Sequence record: PZ445521.1
Source of the DNA: a phage
Strand: one strand, 5' to 3'
Length of the DNA: 64,000 nucleotides
The position numbers and the translations under genes are program-made. Shown in pieces: positions 51,954 through 62,993 of this stretch; position 1 is the stretch's first letter; the number at the start of each line of letters is the position of its first letter. The notes under the pieces are model-generated. The model did not search any database. It was not told where the DNA came from and saw only the letters and a list, made by a program, of their open reading frames with translations.

Positions 51954-51961
51954 TATAAATA
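51954..51961 (+). promoter_or_regulatory. late promoter TATAAATA upstream of gene 34
   Basis: exact TATAAATA about 34 nt before ATG. Confidence 0.6.
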
Positions 51962-55873: not shown

Positions 55874-56989
55874 ATGGAAAAATTTATGGCAGAGTTTGGA
55901 CAAGGATATGTCCAAACGCCATTTTTATCGGAAAGCAATTCAGTAAGATATAAAATAAGCATAGCGGGTTCTTGCCCGCTTTCTACAGCAGGACCATACG
56001 TTAAATTTCAGGATAATCCTGTAGGAAGTCAAACATTTAGCGCAGGCCTTCATTTAAGAGTTTTTGACCCTTCCACCGGAGCATTAGTTGATAGTAAATC
56101 ATATGCTTTTTCGACTTCAAATGATACTACATCAGCTGCCTTTGTTAGTTTCATGAATTCTTTGACGAATAATCGAATTGTTGCTATATTAACTAACGGA
56201 AAGGTTAATTTTCCTCCTGAAGTAGTATCTTGGTTAAGAATCGCCGGAACGTCTGCTTTTCCATCTGACTCTATATTGTCAAGATTCGACGTATCATATG
56301 CTGCTTTTTATACTTCTTCTAAAAGAGCTATTGCATTAGAGCATGTTAAACTGAGTAATAGAAAAAGCACAGATGATTATCAAACTATTTTAGATGTTGT
56401 ATTTGACAGTTTAGAAGACGTCGGAGCTACCGGGTTTCCAAGAAGAACGTATGAAAGCGTTGAGCAATTCATGTCAGCGGTTGGTGGAACTAATAACGAA
56501 ATTGCGCGTCTACCAACTTCAGCTGCTATAAGTAAACTCTCTGATTATAATTTAATTCCTGGTGACGTTCTTTATCTTAAAGCCCAGTTATATGCTGATG
56601 CCGATTTACTTGCTCTTGGAACAACAAATATATCTATCCGTTTTTATAATGCATCTAACGGATATATTTCCTCGACACAAGCTGAGTTTACTGGACAAGC
56701 TGGGTCTTGGGAATTAAAGGAAGATTATGTAGTTGTTCCAGAAAATGCAGTTGGATTTACGATATATGCACAAAGAACTGCTCAAGCGGGACAAGGCGGT
56801 ATGCGAAATTTAAGCTTTTCTGAAGTATCAAGAAATGGCGGAATTTCAAAACCCGCTGAATTTGGCGTCAACGGCATTCGTGTTAATTATATCTGTGAAT
56901 CTGCTTCACCTCCGGATATAATGGTACTTCCTACACAAGCATCGTCTAAAACTGGTAAAGTGTTTGGGCAAGAATTTAGAGAAGTATAA
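55874..56989 (+). CDS. 35: long tail fibre hinge connector gp35
   Basis: 371 aa; synteny. Confidence 0.9.
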   Translation: MEKFMAEFGQGYVQTPFLSESNSVRYKISIAGSCPLSTAGPYVKFQDNPVGSQTFSAGLHLRVFDPSTGALVDSKSYAFSTSNDTTSAAFVSFMNSLTNNRIVAILTNGKVNFPPEVVSWLRIAGTSAFPSDSILSRFDVSYAAFYTSSKRAIALEHVKLSNRKSTDDYQTILDVVFDSLEDVGATGFPRRTYESVEQFMSAVGGTNNEIARLPTSAAISKLSDYNLIPGDVLYLKAQLYADADLLALGTTNISIRFYNASNGYISSTQAEFTGQAGSWELKEDYVVVPENAVGFTIYAQRTAQAGQGGMRNLSFSEVSRNGGISKPAEFGVNGIRVNYICESASPPDIMVLPTQASSKTGKVFGQEFREV

Positions 56990-57020: not shown

Positions 57021-57028
57021 TATAAATA
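57021..57028 (+). promoter_or_regulatory. late promoter TATAAATA upstream of gene 36
   Basis: exact TATAAATA about 23 nt before ATG. Confidence 0.65.
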
Positions 57029-57725: not shown

Positions 57726-60700
57726 ATGGCTACTTTAAAACAAATACAATTTAAAAGAAGCAAAACCGCAGGTGCACGTCCTGCTGCTTCAGTATTAGCC
57801 GAAGGTGAATTGGCTATAAATTTAAAAGATAGAACAATTTTTACTAAAGACGATTCAGGAAATATCATTGACTTAAGCATTTCCGCTGGCGGTAATATCA
57901 GTGGTAATATCACTCAAACTGGTGATTATACACAGACTGGAAAATTTAATTTAATTGGCCCGCAGATTATAGCAAGTGGTGGATATATTGAGTTTAATTA
58001 TCGTACTACTGGAAGTGGGGCTTGGTCCGGTCAACACACTGCAAAGGCTCCAATTTTTGTAGATTTAAGCTCAGCTACTTCCACATCTGAATATAATCCT
58101 ATAATTAAACAGCGCTTTAAAGATGGAACTTTTTCATTAGGTACTTTAGTTTCTGAAGGTTCGTTGAAGATTCATTATATTGATGAAACTGGTCAATCTA
58201 AATATTGGACATTTGCGCGCTCAGGTAATTTTCAAGTTGATTCTGGTAATTTATTAGTATCTGGTGGGTATTTAGTCGCTCAGAGTAATATTGAAACAAG
58301 AACAGGTTCTTTGATTGGTCCATCTGTTGTAACTAAAAATATTTCATTTGATACGAAAGCGTTTGGACAATACGATTCGCAGTCATTAGTTCAATATGTT
58401 TATCCTGGAACTGGTGAAACAAACGGAATTAATTACCTTCGTAAATTCCGTGCAAAATCTGGTGGTACGATTTATCATGAATTAGCTTCTGCACAAACCG
58501 GAAAAAGTGATGAACTGTCTTGGTGGACCGGTAATACAGCCGTTAATAAACAAATGGGCCTTCGCAATGATGGGTCTTTAGTGTTGCGACGCTCACTCGC
58601 AATTGGTACAATTACAACAGATGAAAACATTAATAATTACGGCTCAACTGGAGCAATGGGTGAATGCTATATAGTCATTGGAGATGCCGCAACTGGTGTA
58701 TCATATAAAAGATCTGGTGTATATGATTTAGTTGCTAATGGTCTTTCTATCGCGTCTATTACTCCTGACAGTTTCCGTAGTACTCGTAAAGCATTATTTG
58801 GACGTTCAGAAGACCAAGGCGGAACATGGAATATGCCTGGAACGAACGCCGCGTTTTTATCGGTTCAAACACAGGCTGATGAAAACACTGCTGGAGACGG
58901 TCAAACCCATATTGGATATAACTCTGGCGGTAAAATGAACCACTATTTCCGTGGTAAAGGAAAAACTAATATTAATACTCAAGAAGGCATGGAAGTTAAC
59001 CCGGGTATTTTGAAATTGGTAACTGGCTCTAATAATGTAATGTTTTATGCTGATGGCGGTATTACATCTGTTAAGCAGCTTTCAATATATAACGGCATAT
59101 ATTTAGCAGCTAATAATTCTACTGCTGGGCTAACATTCGCTCCAACTACTACAATTGATGGCACTAAGCAAATTTTGTGGGAAGGCGGTACTCGTGCTGG
59201 TCAGAATAAAAGCTATGTAACTGTTAAAGCATGGGGTAATTCATTTAACGCATCTGGCGATCGTAATCGTGAAACGGTTTTTGAAGTAGCTGATGGACAA
59301 GGATATTATTTTTATTCACAGCGTGTGGCTCCAAGTGGCTCTGAAACTACTGGGCCTGTTGTAACCCAGTTCAATGGACAAGTTAATGCTAGAGGAAGTA
59401 TTATTACTGACGGAAGTTTTAAAGTTAATGGATTAAGCACTTTAGTCGGTAATGTTACCATGTCTAATGGTTTGTTTGTTCAAGGTGGTTCTTCTATTAC
59501 AGGCCAAGTAAAAATTGGTGGAACAGCAGATGCATTAAGAATTTGGAATGCTGAATACGGGGCTATTTTCCGTCGTTCTGAAGATAAGCTTTATATTATT
59601 CCAACTCCGCAGAATGCTGGTGAATCAGGTGGTATTTCTAATTTACGTCCGTTCTATATTACATTAAGTACTGGTAAAGTTTCCATGGATCATGATGTAG
59701 ATATCGGCGGCGGTAGATTTAAAGTAGAAGTGGCTGGAACTACGGCTGGTCAACGTATTATAGTTAATGCAGCGAGCGATGCTATTAGAATAAATGCTCC
59801 AACACAAGAGTCTTCTAACTTCATTCAAGGACGTAAGGCTGATGTGAATAAATGGTATTTGGGTATTGGCGATGGCGGCAACGTCGTTCGTATGCACAGC
59901 TACACATATTCACATGGTATTGCATTAAATTCTGATTCTGTCGATATTACTAAGCCTCTTAAAGTCGGAAACGCCCAACTAGGAACTGACGGTAATATTA
60001 CCAATGGTTCAGGAAACTTTGCCAACTTAAATACCACGTTAAATCGTAAAGTTAATTCTGGATTTATTACTTATGGAGCAACCTCTGGATGGTATAAGTT
60101 TGCAACTGTAACAATGCCACAATCCACTTCAACAGTCTTCTTTAAAATAGTTGGAGGTTCTGGATTTAATAGCGGATTATTCACACAATGTAATATTGCT
60201 GAAATTGTTTTACGTACTAGTAATGAAAGACCTGCTGACTTAAATGCTGCATTATACACAAGAACAATTGGAGCTGCATTTAAAGATATTGCAGTTAATA
60301 ACGTCTCTGGAGATACATATGACATTTATGTTTCTGCTGGAACATATTGTAATCAATTAGCTTGTGAGTGGTCATGTACCGAAAATGCTACTGTTAGTGT
60401 TATTGGTATTAACTCATCTACACAATCACCTGTAGATGCTCTTCCAGATACAGCAGTTAACGGTCAAGTTGCTAATGTTCTTAATAACTTGGTTGATCGC
60501 GGTAAAGTTAAGCGTTATGAAGCCGATTCTGAAATAGCTATTAATAGCCCAACCGGTATTCGTATCAGAAGCAATGGCGATAAAACTGGTTCTGTGGCTA
60601 CAATGTTACGAAATGATGGCGGTAGTTTTTATATTCTGTTTACAGATAAAAATGCCACCGATGGCGCAGCAACTGTTAATGGTGATTGGAATAGTAAACG

Positions 60701-61487
60701 TCCTTTCGCAATTAACTTAACAACCGGCGAAGTGATGATGAATAATGGCATAGCTGTTCGCAGCGCTGCTTTATTCTATAATAGCATAAACGTCAAAGAT
60801 AATGGTTCTATTAACTTTGATAAATCAGGTGCTAACCCGAGAAATATGAGAATATTTCATGCTGGCGATGCTTCTCGCGGTAACCGTATTGAAATTGCCG
60901 ATGAAACTAACTATATTGCTTACTTTGAAAAAACTCCAGGTGGAGCTAACCGCTTTGTAGTAAATAATGCTACTGTGGCTGGTGTTAATCAAATGAATTC
61001 ATTTGGTATTAACATCAATAACGCACTTGGTGGAAACAGTATAGCATTTGGTGATAATGACACTGGCATTAAACAATCCGGTGACGGACTTCTTGATATC
61101 ATTACTAACGCCGCACGACGAATGAGATTCCAGACGGGTGACACTTATTCTGACATGAATATAAATGCTCCAAACGTTTATATTCGTTCTGATATTCGTT
61201 TGAAATCTAATTTCAGACCTATTGAAAATGCTCTTGAAAAGGTTGAGCAGCTTGATGGTTTAATCTATGATAAAGCTGACTATATAGGTGGTGAAATTGT
61301 TCAGACTGAAGCAGGTGTTATTGCTCAGAAATTGAACGAAGTATTACCTGAAGCAGTTCGTGAAGTTGAAGATATTAAGGGTAATAAAATACTCACTATT
61401 TCTTCTCAATCCCAGATTGCTCTTCTAGTTGAAGCTGTGAAAACACTTTCTGCTCGTGTAAAAGAACTTGAATCTAAACTTATGTAA
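57726..61487 (+). CDS. 37: long tail fibre distal subunit gp37, T2/T6-type with C-terminal chaperone-like domain
   Basis: 1253 aa; N-terminus as gp37; C-terminal about 100 aa from SDIRLKSN resembles an auto-cleaving intramolecular chaperone. Confidence 0.9.
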   Translation: MATLKQIQFKRSKTAGARPAASVLAEGELAINLKDRTIFTKDDSGNIIDLSISAGGNISGNITQTGDYTQTGKFNLIGPQIIASGGYIEFNYRTTGSGAWSGQHTAKAPIFVDLSSATSTSEYNPIIKQRFKDGTFSLGTLVSEGSLKIHYIDETGQSKYWTFARSGNFQVDSGNLLVSGGYLVAQSNIETRTGSLIGPSVVTKNISFDTKAFGQYDSQSLVQYVYPGTGETNGINYLRKFRAKSGGTIYHELASAQTGKSDELSWWTGNTAVNKQMGLRNDGSLVLRRSLAIGTITTDENINNYGSTGAMGECYIVIGDAATGVSYKRSGVYDLVANGLSIASITPDSFRSTRKALFGRSEDQGGTWNMPGTNAAFLSVQTQADENTAGDGQTHIGYNSGGKMNHYFRGKGKTNINTQEGMEVNPGILKLVTGSNNVMFYADGGITSVKQLSIYNGIYLAANNSTAGLTFAPTTTIDGTKQILWEGGTRAGQNKSYVTVKAWGNSFNASGDRNRETVFEVADGQGYYFYSQRVAPSGSETTGPVVTQFNGQVNARGSIITDGSFKVNGLSTLVGNVTMSNGLFVQGGSSITGQVKIGGTADALRIWNAEYGAIFRRSEDKLYIIPTPQNAGESGGISNLRPFYITLSTGKVSMDHDVDIGGGRFKVEVAGTTAGQRIIVNAASDAIRINAPTQESSNFIQGRKADVNKWYLGIGDGGNVVRMHSYTYSHGIALNSDSVDITKPLKVGNAQLGTDGNITNGSGNFANLNTTLNRKVNSGFITYGATSGWYKFATVTMPQSTSTVFFKIVGGSGFNSGLFTQCNIAEIVLRTSNERPADLNAALYTRTIGAAFKDIAVNNVSGDTYDIYVSAGTYCNQLACEWSCTENATVSVIGINSSTQSPVDALPDTAVNGQVANVLNNLVDRGKVKRYEADSEIAINSPTGIRIRSNGDKTGSVATMLRNDGGSFYILFTDKNATDGAATVNGDWNSKRPFAINLTTGEVMMNNGIAVRSAALFYNSINVKDNGSINFDKSGANPRNMRIFHAGDASRGNRIEIADETNYIAYFEKTPGGANRFVVNNATVAGVNQMNSFGININNALGGNSIAFGDNDTGIKQSGDGLLDIITNAARRMRFQTGDTYSDMNINAPNVYIRSDIRLKSNFRPIENALEKVEQLDGLIYDKADYIGGEIVQTEAGVIAQKLNEVLPEAVREVEDIKGNKILTISSQSQIALLVEAVKTLSARVKELESKLM

Positions 61488-61488
61488 A

Positions 61489-61506
61489 AGAGGGCTTCGG
61501 CCCTCT
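61489..61506 (+). terminator. hairpin between genes 37 and 38
   Basis: agagggcttcggccctct then T-rich tract. Confidence 0.5.
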
Positions 61507-61518
61507 AAGGATTTTTTA

Positions 61519-62304
61519 ATGGCAATTGTAGGTGTTCCTGGCTGGATTGGTGAATCTGCCGTGAATGAAACTGGACAACGTTGGATGGATGCTGCAATGA
61601 GAGCAGTCCGTGTTTCAGTTCCCGGTTGGATGAGCTCAATGGCCGGACAATCTAAAGAAGTATATTATAGCATTGGTGCTAGTAATTCTTATAATAAAGA
61701 TACATTAATAAACTGGATAAAAGCACAAGGGTCCACGCCTGTTGTTATTACTATTACAGGAAATATTGTTTCTCAATCTACTGGTGTTCCATGCTTAGAT
61801 TTTCCTAGCTCATTAACTAATGCATACGTGACACTTAATATCAATTCAGGCGTGCATGTTTGGGGCCGTGGCGGGAATGGCGGAAATAACTCTGCAGGTG
61901 GAGCAGGAGGAACTGCAATAAATAATGGAATTGGAACTAGATTGCGTATTAACAACAATGGTGTTATCGCAGGAGGCGGTGGCGGCGGTGGCGGCGGATA
62001 TTATTCTCCTTTTTCACAAATGAAATTGACTTTTGGCGGTGGCGGCGGTCGTCCATTTGGTGCTGCTGGCGGGTCTGCTAATATGGAACAGGGCGCTACT
62101 GCTGGTACTATTTCTGCACCTGGTAAAGGGTCTGTCAATGGTATCTATAATGGCGGGAATGGCGGTGATGCTGGTGCCGCAGGTGGTAAATGTAATATTC
62201 GTGGGCAAGGATCAGAATATAACGGCGGTGCGGCTGGTAAAGCTGTTACTGGTAATGCTCCAACTTGGACTAAGGTTGGTACAATATATGGTTCAAGAGT
62301 ATAA
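61519..62304 (+). CDS. 38: receptor-recognising adhesin gp38, T2/T6-type with glycine-rich motifs
   Basis: 261 aa from ATG at 61519 (AAGG RBS); several poly-Gly tracts; the track start at 61468 lies inside gene 37. Confidence 0.85.
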   Translation: MAIVGVPGWIGESAVNETGQRWMDAAMRAVRVSVPGWMSSMAGQSKEVYYSIGASNSYNKDTLINWIKAQGSTPVVITITGNIVSQSTGVPCLDFPSSLTNAYVTLNINSGVHVWGRGGNGGNNSAGGAGGTAINNGIGTRLRINNNGVIAGGGGGGGGGYYSPFSQMKLTFGGGGGRPFGAAGGSANMEQGATAGTISAPGKGSVNGIYNGGNGGDAGAAGGKCNIRGQGSEYNGGAAGKAVTGNAPTWTKVGTIYGSRV

Positions 62305-62336
62305 TTTTTGAATAAATATCCTTAAAAGGAGGGTCT

Positions 62337-62993
62337 ATGGCAGCACCTAGAATATCATTTTCGCCCTCTGATATTCTATTTGGTGTTCTAGATCGCTTGT
62401 TCAAAGATAACGCTACCGGGAAAGTTCTTGCTTCCCGGGTAGCTGTCGTAATTCTTTTATTTATGATGGCGATTGTTTGGTATAGGGGAGATAGTTTCTT
62501 TGAGTACTATAAGCAATCAAAGTATGAAACATACAGTGAAATTATTGAAAAGGAAAGAAATGCACGCTTTGAATCTGTCGCCCTGGAACAACTCCAGATA
62601 GTTCATATATCATCTGAGGCAGACTTTAGTGCGGTGTATTCTTTCCGCCCTAAAAACTTAAACTATTTTGTTGATATTATAGCATATGAAGGAAAATTAC
62701 CTTCAACAATAAGTGAAAAATCACTTGGAGGATATCCTGTTGACAAAACTATGGATGAATATGCAGTCCATTTAAATGGACGTCATTATTATTCTGACTC
62801 AAAATTTGCTTTTTTACCAACTAAAAAGCCTACTCCCGAAATAAACTACATGTACAGTTGTCCATATTTTAATTTGGATAATATCTATGCTGGAACGATA
62901 ACCATGTACTGGTATAGAAATGATCATATAAGTAATGACCGCCTTGAATCAATATGTGCTCAGGCGGCCAGAATATTAGGAAGGGCTAAATAA
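62337..62993 (+). CDS. t: holin T
   Basis: 218 aa; single N-terminal TM helix. Confidence 0.93.
   Translation: MAAPRISFSPSDILFGVLDRLFKDNATGKVLASRVAVVILLFMMAIVWYRGDSFFEYYKQSKYETYSEIIEKERNARFESVALEQLQIVHISSEADFSAVYSFRPKNLNYFVDIIAYEGKLPSTISEKSLGGYPVDKTMDEYAVHLNGRHYYSDSKFAFLPTKKPTPEINYMYSCPYFNLDNIYAGTITMYWYRNDHISNDRLESICAQAARILGRAK

Follow-up and report, generated by a model that had tools for sequence, protein, structure and literature searches.

The gene that lies between the distal tail-fibre gene 37 and the holin gene t of this phage poses two questions. Does it encode a receptor-recognising adhesin or the assembly chaperone that goes by the same name in phage T4, and do the repeats in its glycine codons act at the level of the DNA? 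We addressed both within the window, by which we mean the whole 64,000-nucleotide stretch analysed here (record PZ445521.1). Our reading, to which we assign a probability of roughly 97%, is that it is the gene 38 of a Tequatrovirus of the T2/T6 kind, in which a T2/RB18 chassis carries T6-type loops and the product is a monomeric, Tsx-recognising adhesin on the gp37 tip. In most T-even-like phages it is chiefly the gp38 adhesin that determines host range, which makes these proteins targets for specificity engineering. The gene, family, structure type and receptor of this gp38 are already known: the allele occurs in several sequenced phages, is covered by two independent Tsx data sets, and has a published receptor-prediction and swapping study behind it. 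What the window offers, with no new biology, is a further clear instance of shuffled modules, a T2-type chassis joined to T6-type loops with breakpoints in the glycine-rich motifs (GRMs).

Within the window the genes stand in the order 36-37-38-t, with gp36 (Pfam Phage_T4_gp36) upstream; the step from gene 38 to t is common to JK38, T6, T2 and T4. Three features frame the analysis:

57726..61487, + strand: gene 37, distal long-tail-fibre subunit carrying gp38, 1253 aa (Pfam Peptidase_S74, gp37_trimer and Gp34_trimer)
61519..62304, + strand: gene 38, encoding a T2/T6-type adhesin of 261 aa that recognises the receptor at the tail-fibre tip (open reading frame, Pfam, PDB 6f45_D, identity to JK38)
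62337..62993, + strand: gene t (holin), canonical downstream neighbour of gene 38 (Pfam Phage_holin_T, E 5.4e-117)

Gene 38 opens with an ATG at 61519, preceded by a Shine-Dalgarno sequence (AAGGA, 61507-61511), and closes with a TAA at 62302-62304. A longer listed frame, which begins with a TTG at 61468 and overlaps the end of gene 37, was rejected because every homologue begins MAIVGVPGW or MAVVGVPGW. The list of open reading frames and the translation bear out the claim of a preliminary description of this DNA that a glycine-rich protein of 261 aa follows gp37: glycine makes up 60 of the 261 residues (23%), and in the stretch aa 116-240 it accounts for 46 of 125. The poly-glycine strings quoted there are likewise present, GGGGGGGGGYY at aa 152-162, FGGGGGRPFGAAGG at aa 172-185 and NGGNGGDAGAAGG at aa 211-223. 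Three further open reading frames of 61-92 aa each overlap the gene in other frames (61773-61958 and 62014-62208 on the - strand; 62033-62311 on the + strand, +2 frame); they sit in its G+C-rich, glycine-coding part, where GGN-rich coding leaves those frames without stops. We rejected them as genes, as they lie within gene 38 and are unannotated in related genomes.

The family to which the product belongs is readily read from profile and structure comparisons. It matches the Pfam family GP38 (PF05268) over the entire profile (243.2 bits against a cutoff of 25, E 3.5e-72, positions 1-218 of 218) and Gp38_N (PF21721) likewise (64.6 bits, E 8.2e-18, positions 1-40 of 40). Two solved structures are also matched, the S16 gp38 adhesin (6f45_D) over aa 8-259 (E 2.7e-49) and the receptor-binding domain of PP01 gp38 (9v85) over aa 39-261 (E 1e-33). 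A match to gp38 was obtained in 763 phage records. The rival reading, under which the gene would encode a T4-type gp38, a helper of gp37 folding that is absent from the virion, draws only on gene position, since T4 gene 38 likewise sits between 37 and t, and on a label that misleads in some database records, "distal long tail fiber assembly catalyst". Name and position are, however, the whole of the likeness to T4 gp38 (NP_049864.1), an unrelated sequence of 183 aa that is an assembly chaperone and neither a virion component nor an adhesin. Against that reading stand the full-length matches to adhesin families and solved adhesins, and the gp37 of the window, which ends in an S74 chaperone domain of its own and lacks a T4-like His-rich tip. 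An alignment to T4-type gp38, named in the preliminary description as the finding that would speak against its view, was sought by BLASTP and yielded no similarity (E = 19 over 23 residues). By sequence comparison the chaperone is already refuted, with practically no probability left to it, and the gene encodes, as first described, a tip adhesin of the T2/T6 type.

Segments of the adhesin were named after Trojet 2011 and Npj Viruses 2025, the definition of a specificity domain with five GRMs and four hypervariable segments (HVS) being that of Trojet 2011, and the limits of GRM1-5 and HVS1-4 were drawn on an alignment of 11 sequences. The resulting layout is as follows:

61519..61644, + strand: N-terminal attachment domain, aa 1-42 (Gp38_N profile 1-40/40; T2/RB18-like)
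61645..61863, + strand: linker and beta-helix domain, aa 43-115 (S16 gp38 alignment; 99% to RB18)
61864..61884, + strand: GRM1, GRGGNGG, aa 116-122 (homologue alignments)
61885..61971, + strand: HVS1, aa 123-151 (homologue alignments)
61972..61998, + strand: GRM2, nine glycines, aa 152-160 (two overlapping 15-nt repeat copies; 5' breakpoint)
61999..62034, + strand: HVS2, YYSPFSQMKLTF, aa 161-172 (T6/RB6-type; segment identities)
62035..62073, + strand: GRM3, GGGGGRPFGAAGG, aa 173-185 (opens with a 15-nt stretch that repeats GGCGGTGGCGGCGGT for the third time)
62074..62151, + strand: HVS3, aa 186-211 (92% to Krischvirus 011D4; segment identities)
62152..62187, + strand: GRM4, GGNGGDAGAAGG, aa 212-223 (contains TGGCGGGAATGGCGG, as GRM1 does)
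62188..62223, + strand: HVS4, KCNIRGQGSEYN, aa 224-235 (100% to 011D4; segment identities)
62224..62301, + strand: GRM5 (GGAAG, aa 236-240) and conserved C-terminal tail, aa 241-261 (3' breakpoint; tail 100% to RB18)

Five GRMs thus separate four HVS, and all five are conserved in the alignments; among nine distinct homologues compared (the identical Bas39 aside), identity ranges from 67 to 100% in the GRMs and from 0 to 100% in HVS2-4. In the attachment domain W9, W22 and W37 are invariant and line up with the tryptophans of S16 gp38 in 6f45_D, three of which dock that adhesin on the gp37 trimer (PMC6851490). S16 gp38 with its gp37 (PDB 6F45), the template for the structural picture of attachment domain, beta-helix and polyglycine-II sandwich, is homologous over its full length and shares the three docking tryptophans and the poly-glycine helix 3, and its gp37 tip is homologous too; it differs in its loops, in several short indels within the hypervariable segments, and in its host (Salmonella). 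A single-sequence AlphaFold2 model of the window's protein was unusable (pLDDT 29.6); the solved homologue 6F45 covers the whole protein, and we infer a polyglycine-II sandwich fold from the homology to 6F45 and 9V85, which runs end to end.

The partner subunit is consistent with this picture. The Peptidase_S74 intramolecular chaperone domain of gp37 lies at its C-terminal end (aa 1155-1212, nt 61188-61361), and its last 155 residues align with the fragment of S16 gp37 that was crystallised with gp38 (6f45_A); the aligned part includes GDNDTG as well as SD(I/R)R(L/I)K, with which the chaperone domain starts. Over the last 165 aa it is 76% identical to T2, and over the last 113 aa 43% identical to T6, mainly in the chaperone domain; BLASTP gave no match between the tip and T4 gp37. 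According to published work the N-terminus of the adhesin must suit its gp37 partner, and the pairing seen here, a T2-like gp37 tip with a T2-like gp38 attachment domain, agrees with that requirement.

By analogy with these systems, adsorption may proceed as follows. The gp37 trimer would fold with its own C-terminal S74 domain, which would then cleave itself off, and a single gp38 monomer would cap the newly exposed tip via an attachment domain of three helices and three tryptophans. The GRMs would form ten polyglycine-II helices packed as a rigid three-layer sandwich, so placing the HVS loops at the distal end, where they would touch extracellular loops of the receptor, here the nucleoside channel Tsx. 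Reversible binding by the long fibres would then be followed by binding of the short fibres (gp12) to the inner core of the LPS, which in the case of JK38 means Kdo. The sandwich and the tryptophan docking are taken from the literature (the S16 complex; the genetics of T6, T2 and Ox2), and their application to the present allele is an extrapolation from it.

The receptor question raised by the preliminary description finds its answer in published work on two phages. Apart from a 730-bp duplication in its record (MK962755), Shigella phage JK38, a Tequatrovirus that comes from sewage in Ireland, shows 100% identity to positions 40000-64000 of the window. The DNA of gene 38 is 100% identical in JK38 and vB_Eco_QOTSP and 94-99.6% identical in about twenty other coliphages; at the protein level, the BASEL phage FriedrichMiescher/Bas39 has a gp38 that is 100% identical. 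Neither JK38 gp38 (QEG06095.1) nor Bas39 gp38 (MZ501066, QXV78796.1) presents any gene 38 difference, and their flanking genes are alike. In RB-TnSeq of JK38, the results shown for the two replicates contain no high-scoring gene but tsx, and Tsx was assigned as primary receptor together with Kdo (LPS); the same study used JK38 as a T6-like partner in receptor-swap experiments, gives an ipTM of 0.63 for JK38 gp38 with Tsx, and assigned Tsx/Kdo to Bas39, also by RB-TnSeq (2026 preprint). For Bas39, dependence on Tsx had been determined by efficiency of plating on knock-outs, along with the deep LPS core (BASEL paper, supplementary table). Transferred from the identical gene of JK38 and the identical protein of Bas39, the receptor of the present adhesin is Tsx; further receptors on hosts other than K-12 are possible.

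The loops themselves point the same way. Nearly all Tsx-binding gp38 proteins have one common set of HVS sequences (Trojet 2011), and the T6 set that defines this Tsx-specific subgroup is present in HVS2-HVS4 of the window's protein. T6 gp38 (MH550421, AXN58309.1) is the prototype Tsx-binding adhesin; amber mutants in its gene 38 assemble and do not adsorb (Trojet 2011). Like the protein of the window it has 261 aa and the same GRM/HVS layout, and it shares the loop type of HVS2-HVS4 and identical GRM1, GRM2 and GRM5, but identity is 65% overall and its attachment domain and beta-helix belong to another lineage, with a gp37 tip that differs accordingly. T2 gp38 (AP018813, BBF63406.1), which binds FadL, presents the reverse: its architecture, attachment domain and gp37 tip resemble ours, whereas its HVS2, HVS3 and HVS4 are unrelated. 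The adhesin alignments proposed in the preliminary description were thus carried out for T2, T6 and S16, and they place HVS2-HVS4 with T6.

We weighed whether the main receptor might nonetheless be a porin other than Tsx (OmpA, OmpF, OmpC or FadL), or whether specificity might be dual. The N-terminal two-thirds of the protein are T2/RB18-like rather than T6-like, and in PST, whose adhesin is T6-like, a few substitutions in HVS2 and HVS3 can add recognition of OmpA or of Yersinia (Trojet 2011). Engineered swaps, however, place porin specificity from HVS2 onward (2026 preprint), precisely where this protein is of the T6 type. Together with the RB-TnSeq result for JK38 and the Tsx dependence of Bas39, this makes a different or additional main receptor very improbable, and we retain Tsx.

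That a T2-like body carries T6-like loops is evident from the segment identities, in which RB18 and Kelasse stood for the non-Tsx adhesins. In the attachment domain, identity amounts to 98% with T2 and RB18 but 67% with T6; in the beta-helix it amounts to 99% with RB18 and 36% with T6; and HVS1 is still closer to RB18 (90%) than to T6 (66%). From HVS2 to HVS4 the affinities change, with identities across the three segments of 83, 77 and 83% to T6, 92, 77 and 83% to RB6 and RB27, 83, 92 and 100% to Krischvirus phage 011D4, and 0, 23 and 25% to T2; HVS4 is 25% identical to RB18. The C-terminal tail returns to RB18, with 100% identity. The protein is clearly a mosaic, then, with attachment domain, beta-helix and tail like those of T2/RB18 and HVS2-HVS4 like those of T6/RB6/011D4. 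The nearest allele of HVS3-HVS4 is that of the RB49-like Krischvirus vB_EcoM_011D4 (MT478991; L008 46-828), at 92% and 100% of amino acids against 77% and 83% for T6, and this closeness points to exchange of cassettes between genera.

The codon alignment was subjected to a triplet maximum-chi-square test with 300 permutations. It delimited the T6/RB6/011D4-like core from gene nt 445 or 473 through nt 717, and in none of the 300 permutations was the observed statistic reached. The informative sites that flank the core are at gene nt 444/468 and 721/723, so that the 5' breakpoint falls at nt 444-473, at or in GRM2 with its GGC/GGT tract, and the 3' breakpoint at nt 717-723, in GRM5; such placement in GRMs is partly expected, because informative sites set the limit to which a breakpoint can be resolved, and because homologous recombination itself depends on conserved sequence. 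GRMs have long been proposed as recombination hot spots for the shuffling of modules (Trojet 2011; Npj Viruses 2025), a model that the breakpoints at GRM2 and GRM5 fit. They also agree with an engineered exchange that was resolved "from HVS2 onwards" (2026 preprint).

The repeats in the DNA are real, and we turned to what they might do. The 15-nt unit GGCGGTGGCGGCGGT occurs at 61975-61989, again in an overlapping copy at 61984-61998 (14 of 15 positions matching) and a third time at 62035-62049. The preliminary description had placed it at about 61975-61995 and 62036-62050, which is right as to its presence and one base off in the second position. A second 15-mer, TGGCGGGAATGGCGG, absent from that description, lies at 61869-61883 and 62151-62165, and TRF reports a period of 9 with 2.6 copies at 61975-61997. 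Spacings between the repeats are in frame, 60 nt for GRM2/GRM3 and 282 nt for GRM1/GRM4.

Chance alone goes some way towards such a match. GRM2 is coded as GGA GGC GGT GGC GGC GGT GGC GGC GGA; by our own count about 89% of the glycine codons in GRM2 and in the G5 run of GRM3 are GGC or GGT across nine distinct homologues, and in the other 40 long open reading frames of the window these two codons account for 62% of glycine codons. Resampling of synonymous glycine codons across the G9 and G5 runs produced an exact 15-nt match in 3% of trials under the glycine usage of the phage, in 1.2% under that of gp38, and in 15% with GGC and GGT only. The exact 15-mer pair is kept in none of the nine homologues compared (0/9), and the order of C and T at third positions drifts. 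The exact repeat is therefore mainly a by-product of poly-glycine coded by GGY.

The preliminary description had suggested that the repeats could drive slippage or recombination. Its recombination half is consistent with the breakpoints in GRM2 and GRM5 and was already published; its slippage half is unsupported. A selected device at the DNA level, whether slippage or deletion and duplication between repeats 60 nt apart, would yield adhesin variants at high frequency, and the perfect 15-nt direct repeats, the period-9 mini-array and a GRM2 glycine run that ranges from 6 to 10 among distant homologues might be taken as its traces. Yet the best 30 matching relatives (91-100% identical) all have a gene of exactly 786 nt, the repeat is exact in none of the compared homologues, up to 15% of synonymous resamplings with GGY codons produce it by chance, and the single relative with deletions, Sf25, has them elsewhere. 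From these comparisons a programmed slippage device is not supported, and we hold a selected one to be extremely unlikely; rare codon-level indels at GRM2 over long times are plausible as the source of the varying run, beside the reading of the repeats as mainly a coding by-product.

Gene 38 of Sf25 (MF327009; L006 301-1000) is 99% identical to that of the window and is annotated as two partial coding sequences. One lesion is a 103-nt out-of-frame deletion in the beta-helix, and the second fuses the 3' end to gene t. We rejected it as a case of repeat-mediated deletion, neither lesion lying at a glycine repeat; the allele may be defective, or the assembly may be at fault.

A further proposal is that the perfect 15-nt repeats in the GRMs serve, in this lineage, as preferred sites of crossover or of deletion and duplication. 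We consider this unlikely, though it would have consequences: whole loop cassettes could be exchanged, even across genera, and host range could switch faster than by point mutation alone. As far as recombination goes, the idea was already in print in the 1990s, and it would become new only with a measured repeat-dependent rate.

The region upstream of gene 38 holds one further element:

61489..61506, + strand: GAGGGC-UUCG-GCCCUC hairpin between genes 37 and 38 (-13.4 kcal/mol; terminator-like match)

It stands just 5' of the gene 38 Shine-Dalgarno sequence and is conserved in T2, Bas39 and T4, with a UUUG loop variant in T6; it resembles the extra-stable CUUCGG hairpins of T4 intercistronic regions. 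Directly upstream of gene 38 there is no copy of the T4 late-promoter motif TATAAATA, and the nearest on the + strand, at 57021-57028, precedes gene 36, so that genes 36, 37 and 38 are probably co-transcribed. Across the whole window the motif occurs 18 times against 8.9 expected, the + strand copies including, besides the one before gene 36, another at 51954-51961.

Two minor observations concern the neighbouring fibre genes. In the JK38 record MK962755, a 730-bp unit of gene 37 is perfectly duplicated in tandem (L001 4453-5182 and 5183-5912; window 59701-60430), which shifts the frame and splits JK38 gp37 into two annotated coding sequences, while the window has a single copy of the unit and an intact gp37 of 1253 aa. 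As JK38 is viable and Tsx-dependent, the duplication is probably an assembly artefact. Further upstream, a gp35-like hinge protein of 371 aa (55874-56989) gives a Pfam match over aa 58-113 to ILEI (PF15711, interleukin-like EMT inducer; E 1.4e-8).
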